A DNA stretch of 64,000 bases from Marsupella aquatica (Eukaryota > Plantae > Marchantiophyta), in NCBI GenBank assembly GCA_973895155.1, contig OZ316891.1, positions 23,621,899-23,685,898 on the forward strand. Direction: 5' to 3'. Numbering within the stretch: position 1 is the stretch's first letter; the number at the start of each line of letters is the position of its first letter. Positions 3,613 through 49,077 of this stretch are shown here, piece by piece. A program made the position numbers and the translations under genes. Under the pieces are notes generated by a model. The model made no database searches and was not told the DNA's origin. It saw only the letters and a list, made by a program, of their open reading frames with translations.

Positions 3613-3748
3613 TGTCGTGCGCATACATATCGCTACACAACATACATCGCTTGTCTCATACATCCAGACATAGTCACACTGCCACATCACAAACACAAGA
3701 GAATGGAATACAAGTGGAACTCATGTCCACACATGTCCAAAACCCACA
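3613..3748 (-). repeat. Repeat Y, terminal copy (136 bp)
   Basis: Matches 10405-10540 with about 2 mismatches; TG...CA ends. Confidence 0.95.
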
Positions 3749-4022
3749 ATAATCTCAATACAATCGGCACAACGATCCCGGTCAACAATACCCCATCGAT
3801 CCCGCACCGATCCGATCACACACGTATGTCAAGCCAACGCACCTTGCACTACTCAAGGAATCCACGTTACACAAGCGGAGCTCACAGCCACCATAGCCAC
3901 ACTCAAGCTCCTCTCTCTCCAAGGCTCAACATTGAAAGATGACCTTTCAATGTTTCACAAGTGAGAAGTACCCTCTCACACAAACCTGACGGAACCTTAT
4001 CGGCTCCAATAGCACTCATACC

Positions 4023-7000
4023 TGTTAGGAATTGACTCTAGTTCCCGACATAGTTAGCTTGGCCTTACTCGGGTTAGTTTTAACCCTAGATTACATTAGG
4101 ATAAGATCCGCTTAGTTTAGGCCCACTCATCTTGGCCCCCTTGGGGGGTATAGGCTGGAGGGAGAGCACTCTCTCCCTCATTCTTCACATATACTCTCAT
4201 TTGCTATGGAGCCTTCAGGAGTTTCTCCACTCGGGTGGTCTCGTCGGTGTAGCGTCTGATTGAGTGTCTCTCATGTTTCCGCATTGTTGTCTAGTCCGGA
4301 GCCGACGGTTTCTTACAAGTGGTATCAGAGCTTCGTGTTCGTGGTTCGGTGGCCTGGGCAGTGATGAGAGCGATCGTTGTGTTGGATCGTGGTGAAAGAT
4401 TGAATCGTCGTCGACGGTTGCGTGATCTTTTCACTGGCCGTTTCATTTTGAAGGATTCGTGTTCAGAAAGGGTGACGGTTTTCCAATTGTAACTTCTTTG
4501 AAGTGTTGGATGTGTCACTGTGTTTTTCTGAAGGGATTGTTGGGTGTCCAGTCCAACGATCTTCTATGCACGTCGGTATGCACTAAGTTCTGGCGAAAGT
4601 TTCATTACTTTTCGTTTTCCGAGTGCGGAGTAATCTCATCTTGAGTTTGCTGTTAAGAGCTTGATGCTCTAGGTTATGCTTTGTTTATGTTTCGACTCTT
4701 CTCGTTGTGGGGCCAGTGGGGCCGTTTTCCTTCTTGTTAAAAGTCAAGTTTTTGTAAGCCAAAGTTGCAAAATTTTGCTTGTTGGGCTTTTCTCTCGAGT
4801 CGCCGCTGCGCAACATTTTTCGGCGGAGCGGCAGGAAAGTACGAGAGGACTACCAGGGTGAGTGTACAAGCCCCATCATACGTACGCCTATACGTGGCGG
4901 TACGAGGCCAAAGGCACAAGCAGGTGGGCGGGGTACAACTGTACCCGAAGGTACAGTGGGAAGAGGGAGCTCCCTCCTCACGGGAGTATTTTCCTGCAGG
5001 CCCAAGGTGTGAGCAGGTACAACTGTACCTGCAAGTACAGTACTTGAAAGTACTGCATTAAGTGGGAAGGGAAGGATTTGTGCTCCCTTCTTACGGGAGT
5101 CATTTTCTTTGGGCACAAGGCCCTATGAGCATTGAAGAGGGGGAGAGGGGGAGCGAGCACTCCTTTCCCTTGGGAGTTTTTAATTAGGCTCAAGGCCCTA
5201 TGCTGCAGCTTGGAGAAGGGGTGAGAGGGGAGTTTTAATGCTCCCTCCTTTCGGGAGCACTTAAGTGGTTTCAAGGGCACGAGGCCCTATAAATGTACGA
5301 GCTAGCCAGGAGGGCTCAGGTGCATTTAAGGAGGGTACGAGGAAGTATTTAAAGGGTCAATGCGCGACCCTATGTGCGGGAGGGCAAGGCACGGAAAAGT
5401 TTTTTTAAAGAATTTTTTGAGGTCGGTAGGGACGAACTCTCGTCCCTAGTCTTCATTTTTTTTTGTTCTTTTCTTTTTCTCTCCGCGATTACTCTTACTT
5501 CCCAGGTGGACAGGTGTTGGCTCCACATTTCTTCTGCTGTAAAATTCGACTGTACTTTGATTCCCTCCGAAAGATACTTTTCCAGAGAGCTGAATTATGG
5601 ACAAAATTTCCGAATTCGGCGGTTGTTGAGGCAGAATTTTTTCGCACTGCTTTGCAAGGGGATACTCAAGGGAGTTGAGCACGGGCCTGTGAAATCGATT
5701 TGCATTTAACTATTGCGAAATTTTTTCGGGACCTAAGATACCCGACGGGGGTCAAAACGGCCATTTTGACCCCCCTCCGGTCCGGGTTGAATAAGTTTTC
5801 GCTGGAGAAGTTTTTTGCCAAATCATTTTCAGATCTTGGTAGTGTACCTTGCAGGCTACGCGGCAGTGCATTCCATTTCCACTTTCACCAACTTTCATTT
5901 TTTGGTGACTTTTTGGGTGGAGGTATTTCGGTTGTGTTTCCTGTGTGTTTGTGGCAGCATCAATGACTTCAAGAAAGCTTGCGGCGCCAAAGTTTGAGGT
6001 GGAGAAGTTTGACGGGAAGGTCAGCTTCAGCCTCTGGACTCGGAAGGTGACCAATGTGTTGATCCAGCAGGGTCTTGAGAAGACCCTCACTAGAGTGAAA
6101 CCCTCGAATCTAACAGATGAGGAGTGGGAGGACATGTCGGTGCAGGCGTGTAGCACAATTGAGTTGTTCTTGGCAAACAACATTCTCAAGAACGTGTTGG
6201 GGATGGATTGGAATGCCAAGAAAATCTGGGATATGCTTACTCAGCTATACCAGAGTACTTCGTTGACTACTCGCATTTATCACTTGGAGCGGCTGTTCAG
6301 GTTGAAGTTGAAGGATGGTGGCAACATGCGTGATCACCTCAGTCTCTTTGATGAGATTGTGCACGAGGTGGCCACGGCGGGAGACAAGTTGACCGATGAG
6401 TATCTTGCGATGCATTTGTTGATGTCGCTTCCTCAGAGCTATTCGACGTTGGTGACAGTCATCACACATGACAAGTCTACGTTGAAGTTGGATGAGGTAA
6501 AGGCTACCATTCTTGCAAAATGGGGCAAGCGACAACTTTTTGGCCGTGACAATGAGTCTGCTGCCCTAGTGGTTAGAGGCAGATCGACGGAGCGTACTAC
6601 GGATCAGTCTAGATCTAAATCACATAGTAGATCTAAATCTAAGTCCCGTAGTAAGAAAGTGCAGTGTTGGCATTGCCATGAGAAGGGCCACACCAAGTGG
6701 AATTATCCTTCTCTGTCAAAGCAGAAGCATCCTGCTTCCAATGGTGCGTCCTCATCGTCGGCTGGTATTGTGATTGCTGATAATGAGGATGCTGCTGAAG
6801 TGCTATGTATTGGTGCTGTGAATTTTGTGTATGACAATAAATGGATGTTGGATTCGGGTTCCTCTTATCACGTGTGTCCAACGCAATCATATTTCTCCAC
6901 TTACCAACCTTGTACCGGTACTGTGGAAATCGGAAATGGAGTCCGATGTGCGATTGTTGGCATGGGGACTATCAAATTCCGGATGTTTGATGGTGTTGTG

Positions 7001-10000
7001 CGAGCACTGATGGGAGTCAGACACATACCAGACATCTCTAAGAATTTGATTTCTCTTGGTGCTTTGGAAGCTGGTGGATCTCATTTCATTGCACGTGATG
7101 GTGCGCTCTTTGTCGTCAAAGATGATGTATCTTTGATTAAGGCGCTACGGCAGAATAATTTGTACATCTTGGAAGGAGATGTCATTGCTCCTAGAGTGGA
7201 GCATGTGGATTATGTGGTGGAATGTTTGGATGCAGCGGCAACATCTGCTGTAGAGTCATCTACGGCTGCTTCAATTGAAGCACCCTCAACATCTGGTCGC
7301 ACACAAGCCATAGATTTGTGGCATGCACGGTTGGGGCACTTGAGTGGTAAAGGATTGGCAGCCTTGGAAAACAGAGATTTGTTTCAAGGCGCTCAATCTG
7401 GTAAACTCTCTTTCTGTGAAGATTGCATCTTTGGCAAGCAGAGGAGAGTGAGTTTCAGTTCTAGTTCATACCATTCTCATGAAATTCTTGAGTATGTACA
7501 TTCGGATGTTTGGGGTCCAGCGCCGGAGCCGTCGTTGGGTGGAGCCAGATATTTTGTGACGTTTGTAGATGATTACTCTCGAATGTGTTGGTTGTACTAC
7601 ATGAAGGAGAAGTCTCAAGTCTTTGAGATTTTCAAGGAGTGGAAAGCCATGGTAGAACTACAAACTGGGAAGGAGTTGAAGTGTGTTCGGTCCGATAACG
7701 GTGGCGAGTATAAGTCCAATGAGTTTGATCAATTTGGTCGAGACCTTGGCCTCAAGCGTCATTACACTGTACCGGAGACCCCGCAGCAGAATGGAGTTGC
7801 AGAACGGTTGAATCGGACATTATTGGAGAAAGCACGTAGCATGCTATGTAAGTCCAAGTTGCCCAACAACTTTTGGGCTGAAGCTGTCAACCAAGCTGCA
7901 TACGTCTACAATCTGTCACTGCATAGTAGTAAGTTGATGCAGACTCCATTTGAGTTGTGGTATAAGAGACCTGCTGATTACTCTAGACTCTGAGTTTTTG
8001 GTTGTGCTGCCTATGTTCACATTGAGCAGACACACAGGTCTAAGTTGGATCCCAAGTCTAAGAAATGTATTTTTCTAGGCTTTAGTCCTGGGCAGAAGGG
8101 CTATAAATTGTGGGATCCTGTCGATTGCAAGGCAGTTGTGAGCATAAATGTTGTTTTTGACGAAGAATGGTTGTCAAGACCCCGGGATATTCAGGAGGAA
8201 CAGGTGGAGGAACCCACTACGGTGGAGCTTGGTGGCGATGAGGAAGCTGCTGGTCTCTCTGGTAGAGGTGCAATTCCTCAACCAAGGCGCTCCACCAGGG
8301 CCAATTTTGGCCAACCCCTTGATAGATTTGGTTTTGTAGATCCGCGTGTTCACGTTGTTGAGCATGACGATGATCCTGGTGTTATTTTGCTTACTGAAGA
8401 TGGAGACCCCTCTAGCTATGAAGAAGCTATGGCCTCTCCAGAGAAGGATAAGTGGATGGAGGCGATGTTGAAGGAGATGAATTCTTTGAAGAAGAATTCA
8501 ACTTGGCGCTTAACTGACATGCCTCGCGGGAAAACACTGGTTCCGTGTAGATGGTTGTACAAGAAGAAGCAGGATGGCACTTACAAGGCTCGCCTTGTGG
8601 CCAAAGGGTACACCCAGAAGGAGGGCTTGGACTACACGGAAATTTTCTCACCAGTTGTCAAACTCACTACTATCCGTGTTTTACTTGCGATTGTGGCATT
8701 CTATGATCTTGAGTTAGATCAGATGGATGTAATTACTGCTTTCCTACATGGATTGCTTGATGTGGAGATTTATATGACTCAGCCTCCAGGTTTTATTGAT
8801 GAGAAGACCAGACACTTGGTGTGTAAGCTCTTGCGCTCGTTATACGGATTGAAGCAGAGTCCCAGATAGTGGAATAAGTGTTTTGATTCCTTCATGTTAT
8901 CTCAGGGTTCACACGAAGTGAACATGATTGTTGTATTTACATGAAGGAGGTGGAGAATTACTCACACTTTGGTTACATTGTGCTGGCATTGTACGTGGAT
9001 GACATGCTGATCCTGGCTGAGAATAAGTCTGATGTTGCCCATCTGAAAGCAATGCTGAGTAAGGAGTTTTCAATGAAGGACTTGGGTCAGGCCAAGAAGA
9101 TACTAGGGATGGAGATTCATCGTGACAGGGAGCAAAGGCAATTATGGTTGTCTCAGAGGCAGTATTTGGAGAAGGTACTTGCCAAGTATGGAATGGAGAA
9201 TGCAAAACCAGTTGGTACTCCATTGGCCTCCCACTTTAAACTCTCAAAGAATGATTGCCCTTCTAGTGAGAGTGATAGACTGGCGATGAAACATGTTCCC
9301 TATGATAGTGTTGTGGGTAGTTTGATGTATGCAATGACATGCACTAGACTTGACATTGCCCACGCTGTTAGCATTTTGAGCAGATTTATGGCAAATCCTG
9401 GTAAGCTTCACTGGGAAGCAGTGAAGTGGGTTTTGCGGTATTTGAAAGGTACCTTAGATTGTGGGATCTTATTTGACGGTAAAGCAGACTCTACATTAGA
9501 GTTGGAAGGTTTTGTAGATTCAGATTATGCTGGTAACTTGGATAACAGAAAGTCTACTACAGGCTATGTGTTTATGCTGGGTGGAGGTTGTATCAGCTGG
9601 AAGTTGGCAACTCAATCTTGTGTTGCGTTGTCTACTACTGAGGCTGAGTACATGGCTGCATGTGAGGCAACCAAGGAGTTGATCTGGCTACGGAGATTGG
9701 TGAGTGATCTGGGTCTTTCACCTGAAAGACCGGTGCTACTGTGCGACAGTCAAAGTGCTTTGCATCTGGCTAAGAACCCTGTGTTCCATGCCAGGACAAA
9801 GCACATTGATATTCGTTATCACTTCATCCGTGAGGTGATTGAGACGAAGCAGATGTTTCTGGAGAAGGTGGCTTTAGAGGAGAATGCGGCAGACATGCTT
9901 ACCAAAGTTTTACCTACCAGTAGCTTTAGTCATTGTGTGGATATTATTAATGTTAGGGCCAAACCAGTGACTATGTAAATATGTTACTTAGTTACATATT

Positions 10001-10340
10001 GTATATCACCTGACTCATTGTGTGAACTTGAGTCAAGGTGGAGATTGTTAGGAATTGACTCTAGTTCCCGACATAGTTAGCTTGGCCTTACTAGGGTTAG
10101 TTTTAACACTAGATTACATTAGGATAAGATCCACTTAGTTTAGGCCCACTCATCTTGGCCCCTTTGGGGGGTATAGGCTGGAGGGAGAGCACTCTCTCCC
10201 TCATTCTTCACATGTACTCTCATTTGCTATGGAGCCTTCAGGAGTTTCTCCACTCGGGGTGTCTCGTCGGTGTAGCGTCTGATTGAGTGTCTCTCATGTT
10301 TCCGCATTGTTGTCTAGTCCGGAGCCGACGGTTTCTTACA
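4023..10340 (+). mobile_element. Full-length Ty1/Copia LTR retrotransposon (Tork/Tnt1-like)
   Basis: 295-bp LTRs 4023-4317 and 10046-10340 (about 7 differences); TSD ATACC; PBS TGGTATCAGAGC (tRNA-iMet) at 4320-4331; PPT AAGGTGGAGAT at 10035-10045. Confidence 0.97.
5963..9978 (+). pseudogene. gag-pol: Copia gag-pol polyprotein with stops at ~7991 and ~8867 and a frameshift at ~8915
   Basis: KFEVEKFDGK Gag start, CWHCHEKGH knuckle, LDSG protease, HSDVWGP/SDNGGE integrase, YVDD RT, KHIDIRYH/ADMLTK RNase H. Confidence 0.95.
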
Positions 10341-10404
10341 ATACCAAACGTACATACTCTAATAGCACGATATACTACTACACTACTCAGAATGGTGTGA
10401 CAGC

Positions 10405-10540
10405 TGTCGTGCGCATACATATCGCTACACAACATACATCGCTTGTCACATACATCCAGACATAGTCACACTGCCACATCACAAACACAAGAGAATGGAA
10501 TACAAGTGAAACTCATGTCCACACATGTCCAAAACCCACA
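10405..10540 (-). repeat. Repeat Y, internal copy directly downstream of the PPT
   Basis: 136-bp near-identical copy of 3613-3748, separated from repeat X by the dinucleotide GC (palindrome GACAGCTGTC, 10399-10408). Confidence 0.95.
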
Positions 10541-10715
10541 ATCGCCCCCCTAGCTGGGAGTAAGGTCCCCTAACTCTAGCTAGCCATGAGTTCTACAAGG
10601 TTGATATACACCTTTTTAGGTGTGAAGATCAGGAGGCCGGGTGCAAGTGAGCCCCATCGATCACCTACCTGCAATCCATATCTGCCAAGAGAGCACAAAT
10701 GATAACTAGTCGGCT

Positions 10716-12047
10716 TCACCGACACTGAGGACACAACCATGATCCACTAGGAATCACCTGCAATGGTGGTGTCAAACATGACATGTGCCATCCTCTAGAA
10801 CACTTATCACAAATCAACATAGTAGCTGCTCCTTGAGCAAATCCACACAACATACATTTCAAGCCAGCACAAACATGTGCCAAGCTTGGATCTACTGTAC
10901 CATCAATGTTGGGAAGGTGACATGGTGCACAATTGCGCACATGATCCTTCCAAACCATACCATCGCGTCCCTCCAACATCAGGACACCAGAAGGCAACAC
11001 TTCATGCACACGTAAGATTGTCCGGCCTGCGGTCACATCAAGTGTCGTGGGTGCTGTCTGCTGCAAATAAATATAATCACCAGGATGAAATTGCCGAATG
11101 CTTGCACGATAACCTCCTCCACGAATAGTGGCATACCTCAAAGTATCACAATGTTGGGCAATGGCAAGGTTGTCGAAAGCCATGGGCATCACTCTCTGAA
11201 ATACCCGTGCTCTCTCTGAACACACCTTGATCCAAACATCAGGATCATCCAAGTTCACAACTGATGCAGCATCATGACGAATAGCTGCTGGCAAATCTGG
11301 CTCTCTACCATAGAGCAAAAAGTAAGGTGAGAAGGATGCAAGTGATGCTTGCCGACTGAAACGGTAGCCCATAGCTAACCAAGGTAGCTGGAGATCCCAA
11401 TCTCCCAGATGACCAACCTGCAAGCCATACTTACGCAATCCTCTCTTCACAGTTTGCACAACTCTCTCAGCTAATCCATCTGCCTCAGGATGATCACGAG
11501 AGGTAGTATGATGATCAATCAGAGCTTGTTCACACAAACTCTCAAAATCTCCACGGAACTCAGTTCCCTGATCAGTCAACACCTCAGCTGGTGCTCCAAA
11601 ATGATTGAGTACACGATCCAAAAATGTAGCAGCAACTCCTCCACTGGCTTTATCTGGCAACGCCACTAACTCAATCCACTTGGAGAAGTGCTCCACCATG
11701 ACCAAAACATACCGATTATGACGCTGGGTAAGAGGTAATGGACCAGCAAAATCCAAACTCCAACGATATCCCAAACCCATGATCGGCAACGGGTGCAACT
11801 GGGGAGTGGGAGCATTAAATGATGCTCTCACTCTATCACATACCACACACTTAGCTATCAACTACTGGACATGAGTGTGCATACCACGCCACCAATATTG
11901 TGTCTGCAGCAAGCTGTAAGTGCGCTTTACACCAAAGTGACCCAACTCCTCGTGCGCATGTCGCACCAAATGTACTCTCTGTGATGGTTTTGGGACCACC
12001 AACACTCTACCATCATGCAGTACTCTCAAAAGATGGTTTCCCTCCCA
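10716..12047 (-). CDS. int: DDE integrase with C-terminal PHD finger
   Basis: HHCC zinc finger, WSLDFAGP, TDQGTEF, DGLAER; C-terminus CMLC...ICDKCSRGWHMSCLTPPL...WLCPQC (C4HC3). Confidence 0.92.
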
Positions 12048-13760
12048 TCAAAACCTCTTGGCTCTTTGTAGAACCCTGTCACGTTCGTTGGCATCAACAC
12101 TGCCAACAATAGAACCACTGTGCAGATATTCCAACACTCTCACATCATTGTGAATATCTTGCTGTCCAGAAGTTACCTCACCAACATCCACATCTGAAGA
12201 CTCATCATCCACTCCATCCAATGAGGTAGAGTCCACAGATCCACTGTATGCTGGCACCCAACAAAGAAAGGCAGATGCATGCCATCCTGGCACCATCTCC
12301 TTATCTGACTCATCATGCCATCTGGCTCCAGTCTCATCCTGCTGACTGGTACATGGATTGCGGCTTAATCCATCTGCATCCAAGTTCACTTTTCCAGGCC
12401 TATGCACCACCTGGAAATCATACTCCTGTAACAACAATGCCCATCGTGCAAGCTTCCCTGTAAGCTTGTCAGACTCCATTAACCACTTAAGAGGCTGATG
12501 ATCAGTGATCAAGGTAAAGGGGTTACCAAACAAGTAGCAACGAAAGTGTGCAACAACCCACACTGCTGCCAAACACTCTCCCTCATAAGAGCTATACTTA
12601 GCCTCTGCTGCTGTTTGATCTACTGGCATAAGCCACAACAAACTCATTCCCCTCATCATCCTTCTGAGTTAGCACTGCTCCAAGTCCTACTCCACTCCAA
12701 TCAGTGTGGAGCTGAAATGGTCTACCTGAAATGGGTCTTCTCAAAATAGGGGATGATGCCAACCTTTGCTTCAACTCCTGAAAGGCATGCTCTTGGTCAT
12801 CACCCCAAGTCCATTCCTGATCCAACTTAGTGAGTATGGTTAAAGGTTTAGCAAGCTGGCTAAATCCTTTAACATACCTCCTGTAGTAGCTCGCCAATCC
12901 CAAGAATGCACGAACTCTACTCACATCAGTAGGACAAGGAATCTGTGTAATGGCCTCCACTTTAGTCTGCTGTACACCCAATCCCCCTAGGTATATAGTG
13001 TGGCTCAAATACTCAATCTGGTCTTGGAAGAACTTACACTTGCTAGGATGGAGCTTCAACCCATGTGCTCTCAATCTCTCCAATACAGTCTGCAAGTGCT
13101 ATTGATGTTCTTCCATAGTAGAAGAATAGACCAAAATATCATCAATATAACATCTAACAAAATCCAAACTTGCAAGGATTCGATCCATGACTCTCTGGAA
13201 CTCAGCTGGTGCATTCTTCAACCAAATGGTAAGAATAACCACTGATACAAACGATCTTTGCCATAAGAATCAATCCCCCAGAATGCTGTCTTGGACCTGT
13301 CAGCATGCCTAATTGAAAGCTGATGGTACCCTGCCCTCAAATCCAATGAACTGAAAACCTTTGCATGCCCCACAGCATCAAAGATCTCCTCAGTTGTGGG
13401 CATGGCATATCTATCAGATTTTGTCTGGCGATTAATGGGTCTGTAATCACCACACATGCGCCTATCTGTGTAATTGCCATGCACATCCTTCTTGGCTGGC
13501 ATCACTGTGGCAAATGCATACTCCCCATATGAAATCTCCACCAATCTAGCCTCCAACAAATTTTGAGTTCTGCTTTCAATCAGAGCTCTCTCCATGTCAC
13601 TATAACGGTATGGTCTACGAAAGATTGGCGCATCACTAGCCAATTCAATCTGAATACCAGGGCCCTTCAGTGTCCCCAAATCCTTCATGCTGAATGCAAA
13701 ACAATTCCAATAACTCTTCAGGAATCAATGCATGTGATGTCTCTCCTCCCCTGTTAACTT
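12048..13760 (-). pseudogene. pol: Gypsy reverse transcriptase-RNase H (with stops and frameshifts)
   Basis: RMCGDYRPIN, LDLRAGYHQ, YIDD near 13140, HTDWS, TDHQPL, ADGLSR. Confidence 0.92.
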
Positions 13761-13838: not shown

Positions 13839-14404
13839 TTATTTAGCAGTAGATTGAGCAGTCCCTTCCTGCTCAACAATCTGTCCAGCCTTGGCCAATC
13901 CTGCCATAGGTCCATGGACTGTTTGCTCGCCCCCAACTGTGGTCAATACTGTCTCAGTGGACCGCAAGCTCACCAAGGGACAATCAGTAATTCCAGCAGA
14001 GCGCATCTGCAACTGTTCAGCTACTCCCAAGCTGATAATCCAAGTCAAACAATTTAGGTCCATTGCTTGACCAAGAACCTGGCGCCGCAAACCCTCTAAC
14101 ACAGAGGCAACTGCAGTGGTGCCAGTCAAAAATCCCATAGCACGCTCTCTCTCATCAGCAGTAGGCTCCACTAACTGCTGGAGAGCTGTGTCCCACACAA
14201 GTCCAGGGCCACCTGCTCTGAATGCATATGAAGCAGAGTGGCTTACAAGAGTGGGTAATGCACAACGTGGGCGCCCAACTGCATTGACCATTGCCAATGG
14301 AGGTCTACCAGGTTGGGTCACACCCTGTGCCCGACGCCTTGGATCCAAAATATCATCCACCACTAAGGCCGGTGAGCGTGGAATGCTGTCAAATGTGCGC
14401 TTCA
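13839..14404 (-). pseudogene. C5 cytosine methyltransferase, C-terminal half (TRD, motifs IX-X)
   Basis: EPTADERERAMGF...RRQVLGQAMD; joins in frame to 30953+ after removing insert 14405-30952 and one CTTCA (EVLK-RTFDS). Confidence 0.85.
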
Positions 14405-36060: not shown

Positions 36061-36287
36061 CAACAAATACAACTCTTAGAAAGAAAACCAAATTTGAACT
36101 TTGGACTGAGACAATCTCAGTCCAAAAATACAAGACAATGACTAACAACAAAGAAAACCTACATACCATTTTTAGAAGCCCCAAAGAGCGTAGGTGGATA
36201 TCGAGGCTCTAATTGCTGACCGCATTCTGTGAGACCGAGAAGTATTTTAGATTGGTATGAAAAAATGGAAAGTCAGACGGTTTGATC

Positions 36288-39200
36288 TCAGTCTGAAAAA
36301 AGAGATCCGTATTCATCAATAATGTCAACACCCAGCTCCTCTTGGATTTCAAAGTTGACATCTGAAGTACTTTGTTCTACCCAATAAGGTGACGTCCAAA
36401 CAGGAGTTATCAATCCCAATTCTCCTCTCTTATACTCCTTCCTGTTAAGAATCGATGGAGCAGCATCCAATGAAACTTCTTGGCCTCTATTTGGCCCACT
36501 TTTCCACACATAACATCGTGCATCACGTTCAAGTGACCTCCATCCGCTTGATCCAACTCTATTCCCTTTTTTCTTTGAGAAAGGAAGGACAACTGGACTT
36601 CCCGAGTGTGAACGAACAAAAACCAATTTGTCATCAGAAGCTGAAAAGAGTGTGTTAGGACAAATTGAAGCACCTGCCTGGTTGTCAATAGTCGCTGATG
36701 CACGGGCTTTTGGGGTCATGGGAATCTCACGTACTTCGATAGCCGTCCCGGGAATCAAATTTTGGGTGTCAGCTTCATTCGAATTGACCTGTCTGTCTCC
36801 ACCGTCCACGACCAAATTGGTTGACGAATGATTTTCAAATGTATCAATGTCAATTGGATCACCAATTCCGTCCGTTTCTCGTTGCACCACATTTGGATTG
36901 AGACCATCCTTGTCCAAGTTGTCATCAACCTCAACTTCATAGGGTTCCAAAGGGACGTCATCTGCACCTGATGAAGGGCGTGGTGCAAGACCAATGTTAT
37001 CATCAACATCGTAGGGTTCTATGCTTTCACTTTGACCTACACGGTCATCCAAATTCTTTGCATACGCCACCTCTGATTCCCCATCATCTTTGACTGACTT
37101 AGTGCTCACTTCTTCGGAATTATCAGCTGATTCATGTTTGGCAGAAACATCCGCAATAGTGGGTTTCCAATGCCTAGAACTCCCACCACGAGGATCCCAA
37201 TTTTCCTTGATTGAGGGGACCCTCTCGCAAAGGAATGAAGCATACGCTTCCACAAAGTGTCTCTCATCTTGAGAGTCACAATAAACAAAGCATTCGCGTT
37301 GCACCAAGAATGATGTCTTCATCACTTGACCACCCGAGAAAAAATCAAGAATCAAGTCTCCAGCTTCTGACAAGGATTCAATAATCCTCTGTATCATCCG
37401 CGTGGGTTTGGCATGTGGATTCACCCAACCACCACGAGCACCAACTATCTCAATCAAGGGGCCATGTGCAAAACCTTGGTCGCCTCTTCTGGGGTCAGCA
37501 TCATTTTTAGATCTTCGGGTTTTGACACGTCGTCTGTGTCAACCTTTGCCTTCCCAGTGTCAATCTTGGTGACCTCAAAATCAGTATCTTTTGAACCAAA
37601 AAAGAATTTTGGCTTTGGGTGATTGGGTTTGAAAACATCATTCCAATTGACATTTTCATCTCGAGAAATTCCTGCAAATATAACTTCTTTAATTCCGCCT
37701 CCCCAACACGAATCAAGCGGGTGTGGTTGATCCTCTCGAGAATAACTCCCATACTCAATGTGAATCGTGAGAGATTTCTCTTGTCCCAATTTTCGAAGTG
37801 AGCTTAGGACATTCATTGCAAGAGGCCCCGGATGAACAGTTATGGCTACAACGATTGTAAGATTTTGTGGTAGCTCCACAATGTATTGCAGAAAGACCAA
37901 AACTTCTACTTCCGTCCATAGCTTCTGGTGATCTTGACTGAAGTCAACAATGGCAAGTGAGCACGTTGGAGATGATTCTTCTATTGCTGGTGGATCAACT
38001 GTTTTCATTAGATTGTCACTAAAGAACGTGACCCACGGTTGGCTCCGAGAATGTGTCCCTCCGCCAAACTTCTGGCAATAAATGTCATCAAGGCGCATCA
38101 CCAGAGCTATTGGCAAGATTGCACTCTCCCTAGTATGATTTGGCTTCAACAGATTTGACAAAAAAACTTCACCAGCCGCTCTTCTGCATCTACTGAATTC
38201 TGCGTCAACACTCAACAATGGCAGAACCTCTACAACTTTCTTCCAGACGGTATCCAAAGGGAAATTCCTTGGATCCTTGCCAAAGTAGTACTCTTCAATG
38301 AGAGACTTGAGCTTCCTCACTTTTTTCACATCCTTCGCAAGCTCCTCTATTGAGGGTATGTCAGATTTATTAGTGGCATCTTTCTTCAGCAATGCCTTTC
38401 TTGACTTCACTTGTGTCAGGATTTTTGTGATGTCTTTCTGTGAGATCAACTCACCATCAAAGGGACGAAACATGGCAACGGTAATTGCTTTTTCGGACTT
38501 GTTATTTCCTTCCATCCCAGCTCCATTAGGAAGTTTCCCATGCAACCACATCTCACAGACTAACCGCCACAACTCAAAAAGATCATTGTCCGCAAAAAGT
38601 AGCCAGTATACATTTCGCAAGTCCTTCCTGCCCATAGTCATTCTTGCCAGAGCCAACCAATCCTACAATCCAAAAGGAAAGCTAGTCAGTTATCCCCAAC
38701 TCAAGGGTTGGAAAAAAAGGATTCTAATGTGCGATAATAGTTTTGGATTCGGATGGTCTCAATCAAAAACAAAACTCGTACTAAACATTCCAAAAGTTCC
38801 AATACTCTTTGACAAATTGTGTCGGACTGAGACCATCCGAATCCAAAATAGAATTACTCTCTATGGTAGAGAAATGCATACAAAGTAATCACATTTCTTA
38901 CCTGAAATTTTTGGTTGTCTTGAGCATTTGTTTTGTTGTCGCCATGTTTTGGTTTGTCTGGATTTCCACATTCAACAAACTGCCGCCTCGCATGGACAAC
39001 TGTATCTTTAAAGCAAGACTGAAACACCATCGTGCTATTGATGGCGTTCGATCTCATGGAGTGCTCAACAAGAATTGAAGACGGTGTGCGATTAGACAAT
39101 ATTCTGGATTTCCTGAATTCTAACTTCTTGGCCAACTGGGTGAGCTTGGCATCCTTCGTTGCCCAATCACGAATCCATCTCGCAGTTCTCGCAGAGTGCT

Positions 39201-40499
39201 GACCACTAACTGCTAGAAATTGGACCTCGCCCTTTTTCACTCTGGCCAAAAAATCCTTCCGGTCCGACTCCGTATTCTCAAAGTGGAGTACCTTTCTTCG
39301 CTCGACGTTAAAAGGAATCAAATCAGCGACATGTGGCTCATGCCCAGGTGTTTTGATCATGGAATCAACAATGTCTTGCACATGATCAAAATTCATCATC
39401 CGATAGCATAGTCTCGCTGGTGCGGCAAAAATACTTTCAACTGGGATCAGAAAAATTTCGTTTATCCCAAAAGTATAGTACTGCTCCATTTGTTGAAGAA
39501 CTTCATTCCCTTCTAAGACGTCTTTCTCCTCTAGAGCATGTGGCCTATCACCCTCATCTTCAGCATGTAATGAAAAATCTACAGGAGTTGAATTCACAAC
39601 TCCGGTGTTGGTTTTTTGTTTCTTCTTCTCCCTCGACTTCTTCTCGGCTGGAAGCTTCTTCTTCTCGGCTGGAGCCGTGATCTTCTTCTCAACTGAAGTA
39701 GGTTTCTCAACCGGAAGCTTCTTCTCCCTCTACTTCCGCTTCCCTGCCGCTCTATCCATGGTTGTTGCTGCAGTAGTTTGTGCTGTCTCCGTCGTAGTTG
39801 CTGGAGTTCCTTTGGCTGGCGTAGACTCAATTATGTTCTGTGGTTGTGTACTTTTCCTCAACTTCACCAAAGACTCTACCCATAGATTTGCTTTTTCCAG
39901 GTCAAGCGTGTGTGCAAAGGTTAGTGCCTTGGTGATCCAAACATTTGAGTCTGGTGACACCAGACCTGCTTTCTGAAGCAAATTGTTAAGAGTCCATGTG
40001 GATGGAAGAGAGAACTTTGATGGGTTGTTTACAATGTTGAGTTTCAAATAAAGAAACCCATAAAAAATGTCCAAAGGAAGCATTCCCTTCAGTCCTCCAA
40101 TAATCTTCTCCTTTGTGTAGGATTTTGGAAAGAATCCCATCGACAACACACTTAATTCCCCACTTGCATACCATTCCACATTGAACTCGGCCGAGAAAGC
40201 CTTTGACGGGAGCTGCAACTTTGCCCACCTCATCGTGTCCGACACCTCTACAATGATAGAATTCATTCCTCTTCCTATCATTCCCACAGAGACCACGGGT
40301 CCGATGACCAATGTTTGGTTGTTGCCTGTCCTGATCTTGACACATAACACTGGATCCTGAATGTTAAATGAATTCAGGCGGAAGTTTACTCGCAAGAACT
40401 CAAGTCCCCACTGAAATCCTGGATCGCGGTCCTCCAAAATGAACCCATCGTCGCAGTCTGCCTCTGAAATGGCGAGAGTTGTATTCACCAGATCACTCT
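36288..40499 (-). pseudogene. Multidomain gene: ParB/Srx-like domain plus degenerate beta-class N4/N6 DNA methyltransferase-like domain (intron ~38662-38901, one stop, one frameshift)
   Basis: IPVESI...R...HVQDIVDSM...AVSGQHS (ParB-like); HAKPTRMIQRIIESLSEAGDLILDFFSGG (N6_N4 MTase C-terminal motif); GT-AG intron; in-frame stop at 39730; frameshift near 37457. Confidence 0.6.
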
Positions 40500-40586
40500 C
40501 TGCATTGGAGAGTGAAAATTCATATTAGACTTTAAATCCATGAAATTTGTTTTAAGAAATCACTGTCAAAGTGAGATTGAGGGCTC

Positions 40587-40922
40587 TTGGATTCGGACCA
40601 TCCAAATCCAATACAAGAAGCCCACTTGGATTCGGATGGTCCGAATCCAAACAACCCACTTGGATTCGGATGGTCCGAATCCAAACAACCCTCTTAGATT
40701 CAGACCATCCGAATCCAATCAAGCCACTTGGATTCGGACCATCCGAATCCAAACAACCCACTTGGATTCGGATGGTCCGAATCCAAACAACCCTCTTGGA
40801 TTCGGACCATCCGAATCCAATCAAGCCACTTGGATTCGGACCATCCGAATCCAATCAACCCACTTGGATTCGGATGGTCCGAATCCAAACAACCCTCTTG
40901 GATTCGGACCATCCGAATCCAA
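40587..40922. repeat. Array of 10 palindromic 25-mers TTGGATTCGGA-(CCA/TGG)-TCCGAATCCAA, mostly 34-bp period
   Basis: Units at 40587, 40626, 40660, 40694, 40728, 40762, 40796, 40830, 40864 and 40898. Confidence 0.95.
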
Positions 40923-41470
40923 CAACTTAAGATGCATGAATAAACCTCCGGAAACTTACTTTGGACTTGTGATTGAAATTCTTGGGAATCCCCAAGCGCT
41001 AGGGCCACAAGATCACCGACAGAGGAGAGATCCAAGTCATCAGATTCTTCGGCGAGCAGGACAATGACAGTTTTCTTGGCAACTTCCATTTTTAGGAGTG
41101 ACACGTGGCAGGATATATTGAGGACACGTCAAGATGGGCAAGATCTAGGGCGTTGCAGCAGATTAGGGCAAGAAGGCAATTAGGGCAAGGGCAAGGGATA
41201 GCGGCGGCAGCAAGCCAAGAGCGAGAGCAAGGAGTGAGAATGAGGAGCTAGAGCGAGAGTGAGGAGCGAGAGCGAGGAGCGAGAGTGAGGAGCGAGAGTG
41301 AGGAGCGACAAAGAGCGAAACAACAATGAGGTCTATGGAAGACCTTGTCATCCCTTTACCCCCTCCTGAAAGGCTTGTTTGCATACGGATGATCGCTACA
41401 CGGATCATCTCTGTACGGATGATCTCTGTACGGATAGAGACCAAGAAGGGATCTGGTCCTATCAGTTTGG

Positions 41471-41580
41471 GAGGCAACACCGAGTATCGCGGTTAGAACA
41501 ATCATCCAATCCTTTGTCTGACACAATGGATTGAAAAAGGATTGGATGATTGTTCTAACCGCGATACTCGGTGTTGCCTC
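41471..41580. repeat. Perfect 45-bp inverted repeat with a 20-nt loop
   Basis: 41471-41515 is the exact reverse complement of 41536-41580. Confidence 0.95.
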
Positions 41581-42046
41581 AACCTTATCGGATTGCACAT
41601 TCAGGGCCGAACATACCAACCCACGAGTATAAGAGGTACTCTACGGACATCATTGTTGTTTTAGTTTCATATCTTCACTTGGGCATCCAGGTCTGCGCAA
41701 CTCCTCCTCAACTCTTCTCTCTGATGGAGTTTAGACTTGAAGTGGCTTTGATAGCTTTCTTAGTCAGTTTGATATGAACTTATTCATCAATTTAGAGGTA
41801 GCAGAGCCAACCTTGGAGACATACTGGAAAAACAAGACTGCTGAGGTGAGTTATGGTCTTAGTCGCTTTGCTTATTTTGAGTTCTTAGGGAAGTTTAGGG
41901 TTTACCTTTCACTTTGTTCTGCATTCTAGTGACTTCCCAATTATTATTTCACGAATTACCCAATGTTCCAAAAAACCCGGAATGTCTAAATTTGATTAGG
42001 AAGAGATCTCAATCTCAATATATCCATCTCAACATAATCTTCATTG

Positions 42047-43230
42047 TGGAGTTAGACCATCTGAATCCAGACTTGATGTGTGGATTATAATGGTCCTAAT
42101 CCTAGATTGTTGTTTGGATTCGGATGATCCGAATCCAATCCATTTTCTAGGATTGGGACCATCTGATCAGAATCCAATCTTGGGTGTGTTGGATTCGGAC
42201 CATCCGAATCCAAGCGTGCAATGCTTAAATTGTGACCTTTGGGATCCAATCTCGGTTTGGATTTGGACCATCCCAATCCAAGCGAGATGATTGAATTTGG
42301 GCGTTTGAAATACAGCCTGGTTTTGGATTCGGACCATCCGAATCCAAGCCCGATACTTAAATTGGGACCTTTGAAATACAATCTGGGTTTGGATTCGCGC
42401 ACCATCCCAATCCAAGCGGGTTTGTTGAATTGGGACCTTTGGGATAGAATCTGTGTTTGGATTCGGACCATCCGAATCCAAGATGGTGGGTTGGATTCGG
42501 ACCTTTGAAATACAATCTGGTTTTGGATTCGGACCATCCAAATCCAAGCCCGATGCTTAAATTGGGACCTTTGAAATACAATCTGGGTTTGGATTCGGAC
42601 CATCCCAATCCAAGCCGGTTTGTTGAATTGGGACCTTTCGGGATAGAATCTGTGTTTGGATTTGAACCATCCGAATCCAAGATGGTGGGTTGGATTCGGA
42701 CCTTTGGAATACAATCTGGTTTTGGATTTGGACCATCCGAATCCAAGCCCAATGCTTAAATTGGGACCTTTGAAGTACTATCTGGGTTTGGATTCGGACC
42801 ATCCCAATCCAAGCCGGTTTGTTGAATTGTAACCTTTGGGATAGAATCTGTGTTTGGATTCGGACCATCCGAATCCAAGATGGTGGGTTGAATTCGGACC
42901 TTTGAAATACAATCTGGTGTTGGATTCAGACCATCCGAATCCAAGCCCGGTGCTTAAATTGGGACCTTTGAAATAAAATCTGGGTTTGGATTCGGACCAT
43001 CCCAATCCAAGCGCGTTTGTTGAATTGGGACCTTTGGGATCCCATCTGGGTTTGGATTCGGACCATCCAAATCCAAGAGGGTGTGTTGGATAGAGGTTGG
43101 TTTGGATTCGGACGATCCCAATTCAAGCGAGATGCTTAAATTTGACCTTCGGAATACAATCTTTGTGGTTTTGATTTGGACCACCCCAATCCAAGCGTGA
43201 TAGTTGAGCCAACGTTTGGATTCGCGGAAT
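42047..43230. repeat. Second array of the same palindrome: ~33-bp base unit, ~66-bp dimer, ~198-bp higher-order repeat
   Basis: Intact palindromes alternate with degenerate ones; GATAGAATCTGTG recurs at 42443, 42642 and 42840. Confidence 0.92.
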
Positions 43231-43333
43231 GGCAATCAAATGACCGTATGGATAATTGTGAGTCTCTTCAAATTCTTGTCATTCGGATTTGTGATGGTTT
43301 TTCTGAAAATTGTGCAGGTTACTAAATCCGAGA

Positions 43334-46300
43334 ATGACTGGAAGGTTTTCAAGAGGTGATGATGTGACCTTGACAATTGATGGATATGATGTCGGTTATG
43401 GGACACTTCAGAAAATTAACCCCCAGGATAGGGTGCACAACATATTGTTGGGAGATAATCGAATTGGTGTGCTCGTGGAGAAGGTTTTTGAGCCAACTCG
43501 AAAACTACCATTTCCACTACCAAGGGTAGAAAATCTTTTCGATGCCATTGACTCATGTGTTATTTGGGAGATCTCGTGCGCCTATCTCTCTATAACTCTA
43601 GATTCCCCAAAACGCATCAGTACTGGTAGTTGTTCAACTCGACCAGATAATAACTTGGATAAATCTCCTACAATTGTTATGGAGGATGCATCAAACACTC
43701 TAAGGCAAGGGGACGAGGTTGAAATGCTCATTGATGGGTGTTGTGTAGCCCTTGGAGTTATTTTCAAGGTAAATCCAAAGGACCGATGTCACAACATATT
43801 TCTTGGTGAGTCTCGGATCAGTGTGAAAATCACTGATGTTATTCATGGTAGTAAGGCTTTACCTTACATACACAATGGGGCTGAAACAATTGAAGAGGCA
43901 AAAGACTCATGGGTTCTCTGGGACTTGGCCGATGTTCATAAAAAAGGTTGGAATGTTGATGAAGGTAGAAAGTCTTCCTCTAAGAAGCAAGGTGATGGCG
44001 ATGTTTTAATTGAGGAGAGTTTTGTCTCACATTCTCCATCAACAAAATCGACCAAAACTCATTCTGATTATTACCAATGGTCCAACTGGATGTCAGAGTT
44101 GGTCGAATTATACATTGGTTCAGAACGATCGAGTAAGGTTGCCACTGGGACTATCACTATGCCTCAAGCAACGGCGGCTGTTGATGATGAAATCTTGGGA
44201 GAAGACTATGTAGGGGTTGCTGTGAAAGATGTCATGGAATCGCAATACTTTCCAAGCATTCACAAGGGAGTAATTAGTTTGGTTCGATGGCGAATTGATC
44301 ACACAAAACTAGTAGCAACTGGAAAATTTTTGTCAGACATTCTGGTAGAAGGTACAGAGAATATGGAGTCAATGGATAGGGATGATCTGAATCCGGATCA
44401 TGTGGTTGGATCCGCATCCGGATGTCGTCAAAGGCCATATAACTTCAACAAGAGGAATCAAGTTGATCCTGTTGAGAAGAAAAGGAGGCTCTTGCAAACC
44501 AAGGCAGTTTCAAAAACAATAGAAGCCGCAATCGATGAGATCAAAAGAGTAAATTGCTGCAAGCATAAATGTTGTCTCATTATGCCAAGGGAAGATATAG
44601 AAGATGTTAGGATGGAATTTCATGGGATGTCTAGCGAGTCCAAAACATCACACATTTTCAACCTCTTCCACTACAGAGAGGATGATGTTCGTGATAAGGG
44701 ACACCATGTTCTCAAAGGTATGGTCATCTGTAAAGATGCATTTGCAACCATCCATGGTTTTAGTCACACCAAGTATTATGATTACAAGAGAAGATACATG
44801 GAGGGTTGCAAAATTGGGTTCCATGGGAACACAGGCTTGAAGAAAACAAGGTCAAATACCTTGCATGCGCGAGCTCTTCTAGAGGCATTTTTGACTCAAA
44901 ATGCAGAGCCAATGCCTCATATGCCTTATGGAGGGGCTCATGGGACAGACAGCATTGAGTATCAACTTCCAGCGTGTTACAAAAAGTTAGAGATTTTGGA
45001 AGATGTGAGAACAAAGATGAAGGAAGAAGGGCTTCCTCCTGTTACGGATAACACTCTCTACAAGATATGGAGCACATCATTTGCAAACTTCAGTTTTCAC
45101 AAGGATGGCGCATTTGCCAAGTGTACGCTTTGTTGTGAATACAAAGACAGTTTGATGCGAGAGAGAAGGAAAAAAGAACGTGCTGAAATTGAAGAAAGAA
45201 GAGCTCAACATCTTTGTGAGCAAATGTCACGTAGATATGTTTACTACGCTCATCGAGTGATGGCCAAGCAACATCCAGGAGAATATCTTTGCATTATTCA
45301 CGACAAGATGGATCAAGCAAAGACATGGATTCCAAAAATGGTTAGTACTCCTAAATCACTTTTGGGTCATGGAATGTCGCTACCTATCGCTCTCACGGGG
45401 ATGTTGACCCACGGGAGAGATCCAGGAGTATATGCACACTTTAGTGTCACTGGCCTTTGGCCAGGAGATGCAGATTTCACAATGACATCCTTGGCTAAAT
45501 GTCTTCGAGATCTTGAAGAGTACAATGGAGACAAGACAGGTGACATGCTTGATGGCTTGCATTGGGAACCTCACAAACCTTTCTTTCAAGCCCTACTTGA
45601 CTTTGATGCATTTTTGTCGGGATATTTGGAACCAAAGAATATTCAAGTAAATAGGTATATTGGTTCTGAAGATGGAGCTACCGGCAGTCAGACTGAGACC
45701 ATCCCAACCCGACAGGATGAGGATGATGGAGGGGACGTGGGTGGTGAGAAGGGCAGTCCGTTGTTCATGCCCTTGCCAAGGCACCTAACATTGCAAATGG
45801 ATAATTCAGCAAAGGACAACAAAAACCAAACGGTCATGGCATTTTGCTCGGAGCTTGTGAGTAGAGGAATATTTGAAACTGTTCAAATGTCCTTTCTAAT
45901 GGTTGGTCATACGCACGAAGATGTTGATGCACTATTTTCCAAGGTATCATATCAAGTTCAGCACAAGGAAGTTGCAACCCTTCTTGCACTAATGGCAGAG
46001 GTTTGGGAATGTGAGAGCATTCATCCAGTTCCAAGATTGATACAAGAAGTTGCATCTTACAAAGAATATCTTCAAAGTTTTAAGGTCAAAGATATTCAAG
46101 GTCACTCAAAACCGGTATCATTTCTTTTCTCTATGAGAGATAATGTACCAATATTTCAGTATAAGTCCCATGTTAAGCAAGCTTGGGCTCCCGTTGGCGG
46201 AAGGTGCATTTGGGAAACTGATCCAATAACAAATTCTCTTCTTTTACCCAGTGGACAACCCTTAGCTAAATCCATAGGAGAGATACACAAAAAATCAGAA

Positions 46301-47125
46301 GAGATAATCCCATTCCTTAACAAGTACCTTGATTTTTTGAGAAGGAGTTGCATTGATGAGACGTCAATAGCATACAAGGAAAGATTTCCTCTTGTTAAAT
46401 ATTGGGAAAGAATTGTGGAGCTGTTGTCAAATGGGCTTGCAATGGAAGGGGAGGGAAATAATCAATTTCCATTGAAAAATGGATTTTGGCCTAAGACTAA
46501 CCACGGCACTGGTTACAAGGTCAACCAATCGGCATGCAAACAGAGTGGTCCTCTAAGTGAGGATGAGGAGACTGCAGAGATGACAGCTCTTCAAAATGAA
46601 GTCTTGGAAGAGATGGAAGATCAAGCAGCACCATTTGTTGGATCTCGAGCTGAGAGAGAACAAGGACGGTGGATTCCCCTCCAGGATATTTGTGAAGGAA
46701 ACTTTGTGTTTCTTCGACCCGAGGATGATTGGGAGAAGAAAAATGGTGGAGGTCATTTCTGGTTGGTGAGAGCTTTGGGTCAGGTGGACCCTAAGCATGA
46801 AGTCCCAATTGCATCTTCAAGAGACCCTCCTTTGACTCAACAATATGCTCCAATGTTCCCCGTGGAATGGTGGAGGCCTAAACACTCTAAACTTGATGTG
46901 AGTGAGAGTGCTAGGTATCTCAATTGTTTCATGTCCACCAAGACATGGGAACGAGATCCAGGATTTGGTGAGAACACTCAACATTGGTAGTATGCAAATT
47001 CTGCAATGTATGGTTTTAAATCTGGAATGAAGGAAGAAAACATGGTTGGCAGAGGTTTGAAGATTCCTCGAAATGTTCTACAAACTGTCCAAAGTTATCT
47101 CCAAAGGATGGACAAGTACACTTAG
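43334..47125 (+). CDS. Sola-like DDD transposase (about 1260 aa; one TAG at 46988 near the C-terminus)
   Basis: FAKCTLC, IIHDKMDQ, LQMDNSAKDNKN...FLMVGHTHEDVDALFS; three N-terminal repeats of an En/Spm TNP1-like domain. Confidence 0.85.
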
Positions 47126-47346
47126 TTGTCACTAGCTAAGGTATAATTAGATAGTTACTAGTTTTTATGTAAGAATTATATATATTGTGAGACCATGCCA
47201 TTGAGTGTTTAGTTACTTAGTAGACTATCTACTCATTTTCTAAACTTTTGATTATTATGAATATGAATGTTTATTTTTTCTGCATAATTAAAAATATTTT
47301 TTATTAATTTCTTTATTTTAAATGATTACAATAAAAGTTTTCAGGA

Positions 47347-47647
47347 AAATGTACACTTTTTAGGCCAAATGTACTCTTTGTTGCACTCAAAGCTACACTT
47401 TCTAGACTAAATGCACTGAAATGTACACTTTTTAAGCCAAATGTATCCTTTTTCACTCAAATGTACACTTTCTAGGCCAAATGTACTAAAATGTACACTT
47501 TTTAAGCCAAATGTACATATTTTGATGCTCAAATGTACACTTTTCATTGCCCAAATATACACTCTTTAGACCAATTGTACACTTTTTTATCCTCAAATGT
47601 ACACTTTTCTAAGCCCAAAAGTACACTTTTCATTGCCCAAATGTACA
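47347..47647 (+). repeat. Right subterminal AAATGTACACTTT repeats
   Basis: More than 10 copies preceding the right TIR. Confidence 0.9.
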
Positions 47648-47910
47648 TAAATCAAATAATAATACACTTTTAATGAATAGGCTGATCATTCAACTCTCCA
47701 CACAAAAGCAAATGCAAATCAATATGACAATGTGCATAAGGTTCAAGGAAGAGCCTTCATAATAGGCTTCACAATGGCACTCCAATGTTGTAGATGAGAA
47801 CCAAGGCAAAATTGGTTCAATCTGTGAGTCTAGATGGACTCAGAAGTATCAAAAACCCTGAAACAACCTTTGATTTGGCCTAGAATAGGCCTCTAAACAA
47901 ACCGGGAAGT

Positions 47911-48053
47911 GTATAAAGCCCCCTGGCGCTTGAATCTAAACAACAAGTTGTCAAAGCTTGTGTGTACACAAGGTGGGATGAGAACTTGCCAGTTAAGCGC
48001 TTGCGGCTGGGAATAGCCCCGGGATGGGTGACCTCCTTGCGCTCGACCTCGTG
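47911..48053 (+). promoter_or_regulatory. 5S rRNA-derived Pol III type-1 promoter (box A, IE, box C, upstream TATA), antisense to the DNMT-Gypsy
   Basis: AGAACT..CAGTTAAGCG-N22-GGATGGGTGACCTCC matches the spacing of plant 5S; TATAAA at -30 and C at -1 relative to an inferred +1 at 47942. Confidence 0.7.
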
Positions 48054-48741
48054 CCTCCCCTTGCGCTCACGGCCCAGAATAGCCACGAGTTGCCTCGAAG
48101 CCTCAAACGCCGAGATGAGCCAAAGAGTGAGCCCTTCACGCCCGCAACGCTTCGCTACACCGAATCGAGTTTTGGCAACATTCAGATTTCCGTCTCTCAG
48201 TTTCCCTTCACAGAACGACGGACAGTCGGGAGTTGCGGATCAGCTGCGAGCAGTCGGCGCCCTGTTGCTCGGATCCGCGAGTTGCAGCAACTTCGCGCGG
48301 ATTGGCCCTTCCACATAACCGCGCGGAGCATCGGCAGATCGCCGCTTCACTTGCGCCTTATCACAGTAGTCGAAAATCAGATCTGAAGCCTCGCAGATGA
48401 CTTCCACTGTCCGACGATCTGCCAACATTTGCGGAATGCTTTCCTCCACGAAAACCAACATTCAAACTCGGCTACAACAGCAGCGTTATGTGCCCAGATC
48501 CGATAACACAATGAGCGATCTGCAATCTTCAATGATCTGTGATCTCTTTCCTCAAAATAGCATTCGCCAACACAAACTGCAGCAAATTGAAGGACTAACG
48601 ATCTACTCAATGAGATCCGAGATACCACGGATCCACGCAACAGATTGAAACGATTTCCACAAACCATCACCAACTCGATCAATCCAAAATGAACTTCTGT
48701 TTGCACAGTCCGCACAACAGAGTTTGCATCTGATCTTTCAA

Positions 48742-49073
48742 TGTAATCTCAATACAATCGGCACAACGATCCCGGTCAACAATACCCCATCAATCCCGCA
48801 TCGATCCGATCACACACGTATGTCAAGCCAACGCACCTTGCACTACTCAAGGAATCCACGTTACACAAGCGGAGCTCACAGCCACCATAGCCACACTCAA
48901 GCTCCTCTCTCTCCAAGGCTCAACATTGAAAGATGACCTTTCAATGCTTCACAAGTGAGAAGTACCCTCTCACACAAACCTGACGGAACCTTATCGGCTC
49001 CAATAGCACTCATACCAAACATACATACTCTAATAGCACGATATACTACTACACTACTCAGAATGGTGTGACA
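48742..49073 (-). repeat. Repeat X, 5' terminal copy (332 bp)
   Basis: TG...CA ends; followed by a non-tRNA PBS complementary to LTR-internal 48923-48934. Confidence 0.95.
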
Positions 49074-49077
49074 TGTG

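Follow-up and report, generated by a model that had tools for sequence, protein, structure and literature searches.

A Gypsy-Dnmt3-PHD retrotransposon family of the liverwort Marsupella aquatica with split direct repeats, and its possible integration from an end-joined circle

We analysed a stretch of 64,000 nucleotides of Marsupella aquatica (contig OZ316891.1 of assembly GCA_973895155.1, positions 23,621,899 to 23,685,898 of the forward strand), hereafter the window, which contains a dead and decayed copy of a retrotransposon of the Gypsy-Dnmt3-PHD family. The element lies on the minus strand, where it starts with TGTCAC at 49073 and ends with CACGACA at 3613, and the same 4-bp target-site duplication (TSD), TGTG on the plus strand, stands on its 5' side (49074–49077) and on its 3' side (3609–3612). 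It now spans 45 kb because three insertions are nested in it, every one flanked by a TSD of its own; without these passengers its length is about 9.5 kb, compared to 9.1–9.3 kb in four uninterrupted relatives.

The order on the minus strand is X, primer-binding site (PBS), internal region, polypurine tract (PPT), Y, CACGACA-GC-TGTCAC, X and Y. The first X (48745–49073), the 5' repeat, comprises the 3' part of U3 followed by R and U5; it begins with TGTCAC at a half-site of the putative attachment (att) core, and is 99% identical to the second X, which is split into a first part (10341–10402) and a second part (3751–4022). It contains the predicted 5' end of the RNA with a 12-nt self-primer (48923–48934), complementary to the PBS (48733–48744). 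The PPT (10543–10551, at the same position in the relatives) precedes the first Y (10405–10542), which is the 5' part of U3 and ends with CACGACA. At the passage from this Y to the second X lies the palindromic att core GACA-GC-TGTC (10399–10408), whose GC spacer (10403–10404) is missing from both ends of the element; the sequence GACAGCTGTC occurs a single time in the window, at 10399, between Y and X. The second X ends at the predicted right end of the complementary DNA (cDNA), and the second Y (3613–3750) runs from the predicted left end of the cDNA to the CACGACA of the att half-site. Over the repeats, 6 of the 467 compared bases differ between copies. A first-pass annotation of this DNA had proposed the layout X-internal-Y-GC-X-Y with a 4-bp TSD; all the landmarks are in place, with slightly shifted boundaries, X ending at 48745 and 3751 and Y beginning at 10542 and 3750. 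It had also taken Y-GC-X as the true long terminal repeat (LTR), and the positions of the PPT and of the PBS agree with this. It did not include the predicted self-priming site, the domains Dnmt3 and PHD or a shorter X-internal-Y form, all described below.

The internal region codes for gag, protease (PR), Dnmt3, reverse transcriptase (RT), RNase H (RH), integrase (INT) and a PHD finger, in this order. After a 5' leader of about 1.3 kb (34397–48732), broken by a nested 13-kb DNA transposon (34628–47684), come gag (32747–34396), with two zinc-knuckle-like motifs and no Pfam match, and a protease region (31466–32746) with an LDIGA motif, which has no Pfam match in the window copy, PF13650 being present in three related polyproteins. 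The Dnmt3-like cytosine methyltransferase, whose best matches in the PDB are DNMT3A, is in two pieces on either side of a 16.5-kb insertion: the N-terminal part (30953–31465; PF00145) has the PCQ and ENV motifs, and the C-terminal part lies at 13839–14404. The two halves are contiguous in the relatives and the pieces are colinear, which shows that both ends belong to one element. The reverse transcriptase and RNase H (12048–13724; PF00078, PF17917, PF17919) are disrupted by stops and frameshifts, and are followed by the core of a DDE integrase, whose catalytic residues are spaced D,D(34)E, and, C-terminal to it, by a PHD finger (10716–11861; PF00665, PF00628). Among PDB entries, the integrase is best matched by those of Ty3 and foamy virus; AlphaFold models INT-PHD with low confidence (mean pLDDT 62). 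A programmed stop between gag and pol was considered and rejected: the four relatives checked all have a sense codon at this position and a single gag-pol frame, and the stop in the window is the result of decay.

The element has the characters of a Gypsy element, namely the gag-PR-RT-RH-INT order with a DDE integrase, a PBS after the 5' repeat, a PPT before the 3' repeat, TG...CA ends and a TSD in the range of 4–6 bp, except that it lacks two complete and identical terminal LTRs. Named homologues are found in Calypogeia, Marchantia, Sphagnum, Riccia, Klebsormidium and Haematococcus. In six related polyproteins (P0191, P0195, P0198, P0173, P0202 and P0203) the Dnmt domain is located between RNase H and integrase, and not before the reverse transcriptase.

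Relatives were collected from short-read metagenome contigs by an integrase-alignment scan of 64 parts, and the best 80 of 562 matches, which come from 26 of these parts, were analysed; most of those listed fall in two subfamilies, whose integrases are about 74% and 50% identical. The X and Y repeats of the window, of family 1 and of family 2 give no mutual BLAST match. A weak locus from viral contigs (L001) was left out, L067, whose 5' end is truncated, was left out of the TSD count, and L008, apparently a collapsed repeat contig, was used for motifs only. Y follows the integrase in 56 of the 80 loci; the other 24, of which 19 were inspected, have no forward Y match (contig ends, other insertions, other subfamilies). 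The 56 loci collapse to 48 distinct 3' ends: 24 read Y-X-Y, 21 Y only (in one of them the contig breaks off), and the remaining 3 Y-X, either truncated by the end of the contig or rearranged. At the other end, Y was found upstream of X in none of 16 distinct 5' ends of relatives, nor in the window copy, and neither X-Y-X nor a solo X-Y was seen among the relatives' loci examined; relatives with ordinary YX...YX repeats, which would have spoken for a one-off, were thus not found.

Intact ends are TGTCA...CACGACA. Fourteen copies are complete, eight of the form X-internal-Y-X-Y (including that of the window) and six of the form X-internal-Y, and their 4-bp flanks match at four bases in nine copies, at three in three, and do not match in two. 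In a control with mismatched pairs of flanks, 0 of 182 pairs match at all four bases and 8 at three or more. The sequence of the TSD varies from insertion to insertion. The first-pass annotation had asked whether copies share their ends and carry 4-bp TSDs, and 12 of the 14 complete copies have such a TSD, matching at three or four bases. Two internally deleted X-internal-Y copies also have TSDs: the one at L019:8453–11430 lacks the region from gag to the middle of RT, and that at L014:59–6641 lacks RT and RH; they are possibly non-autonomous copies that were moved in trans.

The window's own family can be followed in contigs from two public runs. In these, 34 and 19 contigs exit exactly at 10405 into unrelated flanks (the agreement of the flanks beyond this point is 0.36 and 0.39), and 31 and 14 contigs continue at 10542 from Y into the end of X. 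These breakpoints are those of the 12 rows listed out of 113, none of which covers the start of X. A separate comparison over 7.5 kb, dominated by the copia insert, indicates a high-copy family in which some contigs skip the copia element; it has no rows at the ends of the Gypsy element. The X-internal-Y-GC-X-Y layout is the rule of the family and not a one-off.

Inside U3, the sequence CACGACA-GC-TGTCA is conserved, intact or decayed, in five families, and the predicted cDNA ends have no conserved att site. Of 27 inner junctions, 26 can be read as this core with a spacer of 2 bp; the spacer is GC or its C>T/G>A decay, of the methylation type, in 25, and the intact ends of the elements are the core minus its GC spacer; the claim that the elements end at the CA/GC/TG site stands. 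DDE integrases are established to cut the two strands in a staggered fashion after CA and then to carry out strand transfer, and the geometry of the att core would fit this in the window family. Of 18 aligned integrases, 15 have retained the residues D, D and E; the D,D(34)E spacing is kept in all 18 aligned rows and in 5 of 6 matched polyproteins (P0192, P0194, P0173, P0202 and P0170), the distance from D to E being 34 residues compared to 35 in the two copia integrases of the window. As the first-pass annotation had it, the enzyme is a DDE integrase and no recombinase was seen: none of 83 six-frame open reading frames (ORFs) from L015, L073 (at least 75 residues) and the non-coding parts of the window (at least 40–50 residues) matches a tyrosine recombinase, although degenerate short pieces could escape this search. 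The domains of the element leave no space for a recombinase gene except in the leader.

The ends of the cDNA can be predicted from the priming sites. Wherever the start of Y is intact, the PPT stands directly before the first Y. The sequence downstream of the 5' X is the complement of a stretch within X, over 12 nt in the window and 12–17 nt in six relatives. In 7 of 15 copies, which come from four families and include the window, none of the 100 shuffles reaches this complementarity. In three families a TATA-like box is found about 30 nt ahead of the site inside X. The predicted 5' end of the RNA and the PBS are paired both in the minimum free energy fold and in the centroid fold, with a z-score of −0.5 (for a fold begun one base short of the predicted start). 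The PPT and the predicted self-priming site place the true ends of the cDNA at the X/Y join, and from their positions the linear cDNA is predicted to be Y-GC-X...Y-GC-X. One locus (L043:3361–3878) has two copies of X head to head at the self-primer/PBS hairpin, which is an assembly chimera or a template switch.

A 12-nt primer and a plus strand that starts at the A after the PPT should give a blunt join. This is the join of the window (3750/3751), which is exact on the revised boundaries and had earlier been read as imperfect; it is also the commonest join among the family contigs listed from the two public runs. The idea that the junction is constant did not hold: in the relatives 11 of 24 joins, classed by eye, are exact, and 13 are altered by a 2-nt overlap (five cases), a retained base of the PPT or PBS, small or large deletions or filler. 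The X/Y join thus appears to vary in the manner of an end-joining scar. The types of join are not clustered on a tree of subfamily 2 (from which L076 was left out), and the first X is nearest to the second X of its own copy in five of seven copies.

We consider it likely that the DDE integrase inserts an end-joined 2-LTR circle, opened at the CA/GC/TG site inside U3. The RNA would start inside X, and its first 12 nt or so would prime its own reverse transcription, giving the linear Y-GC-X...Y-GC-X cDNA set by the PBS and PPT. That Y stands at the far right of the element implies that the two ends of the cDNA were joined, probably by host end joining, and the X/Y join would be made anew in each cycle. 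The integrase would then open the site adjoining the PBS by a cut after CA in each strand, with loss of the GC spacer, and strand transfer would yield X-internal-Y-GC-X-Y, with the ends and the 4-bp TSD that are observed. Only this longer form keeps U3 and R, as a whole Y-GC-X, at its 3' end, so that it alone should be able to replicate again, which would select for the use of the PBS-adjacent att site. The X-internal-Y copies would come from 1-LTR circles, or from later recombination between the two Y, and would be dead ends. The circular integration that the first-pass annotation had suggested is the best explanation of the data, the circle itself being something that we infer.

Several observations weigh against this proposal. 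From sequence alone, a circle that is covalently closed and other intermediates with joined ends look the same. Two identical sites are present on a 2-LTR circle, and the mirror product, X-Y-GC-X-internal-Y, is found in none of the 16 5' ends; its absence, which the data do not explain, needs a site preference or a later collapse. In Drosophila, 2-LTR circles of HMS-Beagle are rare according to the accessible text of a preprint (10.1101/2022.09.25.509424), so that the family would need a far more efficient circularisation. The PBS complement does not exceed the shuffles in 8 of the 15 copies, the older ones, and no TATA box was found in the X of the window. The tree of subfamily 2 is star-like, with 3 of 27 inner branches well supported, which makes the scatter of the joins weak evidence, and the second Y is nearest to its own first Y in just 3 of 23 copies (it is closer to it than to the median of the other copies in 19 of the 23). 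Some of the Y-only ends may be collapsed assemblies, since the relatives are short-read contigs. Last, two complete copies, L036 and L041, have no TSD. The flanks of L041 (2314–2321 and 11387–11394) carry an imperfect 8-bp duplication in place of a 4-bp one, and this copy is possibly an aberrant insertion.

Two other routes also lead to the observed copies through an integrase. In one of them, the reverse transcriptase jumps from the finished right end to the left end and over-replicates, and a linear Y-X-internal-Y-X-Y(-X) molecule, with no covalent circle, is trimmed at its first and last att sites. Such jumps would account for the unseen mirror form if only the plus strand jumps, and the exact joins and 2-nt overlaps (16 of 24) are also what one expects from end-to-end template jumps in general. 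On the other hand, the filler of L022, partly copied from the nearby X, the large microhomology deletion of L047 and the leftover bases of PPT or PBS resemble double-strand end joining, and the Y-only copies fit 1-LTR circles with no further assumption; we regard this route as unlikely. The alternative in which the cut comes before the join is somewhat less likely still. There, the integrase would cut the left att site of the linear cDNA and insert the new ends, host repair would join X and Y in the chromosome, and X-internal-Y would result from trimming at both sites. The final sequences would be identical, including the variable joins, but a chromosome break held by a fragment of 115–180 bp would be needed at every insertion, and the high share of exact joins (11 of 24; also the most common type among the contigs listed for the window family) is in keeping with the direct ligation of fresh blunt cDNA ends.

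PAT, Ngaro and VIPER have the A1-B1-A2-B2 layout (from the accessible text of PMC6681497), and a tyrosine recombinase supplied in trans could in principle move the element in the fashion of PAT or Ngaro, the integrase being a passenger. This is very improbable: the search of L015, L073 and the non-coding parts of the window gave no such enzyme, the variable 4-bp TSDs, the TG...CA ends and the loss of the spacer fit DDE strand transfer, and the conservation of the catalytic triad in 15 of 18 integrases holds across 50% divergence. That the window holds a one-off rearrangement or a misassembly of an ordinary LTR element could be argued from the age and heavy nesting of this copy. It has next to no probability and is refuted by the relatives and by the contigs of the window family: the same layout and ends are found at 24 distinct insertion sites in two other subfamilies, the layout recurs in both public runs, and it is in print for Klebsormidium.

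Regarding the nested insertions, neither of the two inserted in the methyltransferase and in the second X belongs to the Gypsy element. The former (14405–30952) has a 5-bp TSD and short inverted ends, TGTGAC...GTGACA; no long terminal repeat was found at its left end. It contains coiled-coil ORFs with no Pfam match and a young copia element (25284–30651) whose LTRs are 100% identical, and related DNA, partly inverted, lies at 59574–64000. A giant solo LTR is one possibility, an unclassified element another. The insertion in the second X is a copia element on the plus strand (4023–10340), with the TSD ATACC. The DNA transposon of the leader (34628–47684) has 24-bp terminal inverted repeats (TIRs) that match at 23 of 24 positions, a 2-bp TSD (AT) and an ORF with DUF7869 (43307–46990); on its other strand are ORFs that match NIF-phosphatase and, weakly, an N6/N4-methylase, with 34- and 66-bp tandem arrays between them. 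Directly beside the Gypsy copy, the segment 49336–55006 has inverted arms of about 870 bp, 81% identical, around ORFs, of which one was scanned and has no Pfam match; this is probably a TIR or foldback element.

The layout is real and mechanistically unusual, and it holds across the family. As a rule, circles of LTR retroelements are regarded as by-products, or at most as a reserve, and their role as integration precursors is an old hypothesis of retrovirology. On balance, we favour the broader idea that a Gypsy lineage widespread in streptophytes, ranging from Klebsormidium to the liverworts and mosses, moved its att site into U3, so that the linear cDNA would no longer be a substrate and end-joined circles would be the obligatory precursor of replicating copies. 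The DDE integrase would then act like a circle-junction transposase, and split repeats would be the convergent signature of an internal att site, whatever the recombinase chemistry. If this is true, the family is a natural case of circles as integration precursors, in which every replication-competent copy passes through joined cDNA ends; the DIRS/PAT layout would be tied to the location of the att site and not to the enzyme, and an oddity of repeat layout left unexplained in 2018 would be accounted for. LTR-finding programs would also be predicted to miss the whole lineage, since they demand two terminal repeats. Related proteins are annotated in Marchantia polymorpha, where the circle route could be tested.

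The closest known element is KnitGypsy-Dnmt3 of Klebsormidium nitens, described as having a DIRS-type repeat structure with Gypsy domains (de Mendoza et al. 2018, legend of Fig. 4c, PMC5890265). Like the window element, it has a Dnmt3 domain inside a Gypsy Pol and A-coding-B-A-B repeats. The K. nitens polyprotein P0192 shares with the window the PR-Dnmt-RT-RH-INT order and the D(34)E spacing, and each of its domains beyond the protease is 38–56% identical to that of the window; for this reason the two very likely belong to the same group. On KnitGypsy-Dnmt3, the accessible text (PMC5890265) is silent about the end sequences, the TSD and the mode of priming, about a PHD finger and an X-internal-Y form, and about the mechanism of integration, and a 2026 preprint, in its accessible part, names a streptophyte Gypsy-DNMT3 with no repeat layout. 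The route had first been presented as undescribed. The layout is in fact already in print, in one sentence of that legend; the internal att site, the predicted self-priming, the variable join and the X-internal-Y form were not found in print, and our literature search, whose coverage excluded most subscription papers, theses and Repbase reports, returned no paper that gives a mechanism for the layout. In Chlamydomonas, Gypsy-7a_cRei has a Gypsy polyprotein with a PHD finger and left and right LTRs that differ by 8 bp; unlike in the window element, neither a Dnmt domain nor a split layout is mentioned in the accessible text (PMC9940879).

Split direct repeats of the form A1...B1-A2-B2 are, from what is accessible of the literature, shared by the window element and by PAT, Ngaro, VIPER and SymbioDIRS. 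A circular intermediate is the usual model for retrotransposons of the PAT/Ngaro/VIPER type. These elements use a tyrosine recombinase, in contrast to the DDE integrase, variable 4-bp TSDs, PPT and Gypsy domain order of the window family. Regarding priming, Tf1 uses a primer of 11 nt. The accessible text on Tf1/Sushi and Tcn1 describes self-priming, with a PBS complementary to the element's own RNA and not to a tRNA (PMC6317226). They have ordinary LTRs and mostly chromodomains, whereas the window family has a predicted primer of about 12 nt, PHD and Dnmt3 domains and permuted repeats.

The integrases of HIV-1 and foamy virus, according to the accessible texts, cut palindromic CA...TG junctions of 2-LTR circles, and circles can feed integration (PMC1905944, PMC1180852, PMC4372172). 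In these viruses the cut site is the circle junction itself, the normal linear genome is restored and the pathway is a side route; in the window family the site has a fixed place within U3 and differs from the ligated junction, and the product is a circular permutation. In copy-out-paste-in transposition of the IS3/IS30 type, the circle that a DDE enzyme inserts is opened where its inverted ends abut, and a short spacer is lost. There, the transposase makes the circle junction from DNA, whereas in the window family the att junction pre-exists in the U3 copied from RNA.

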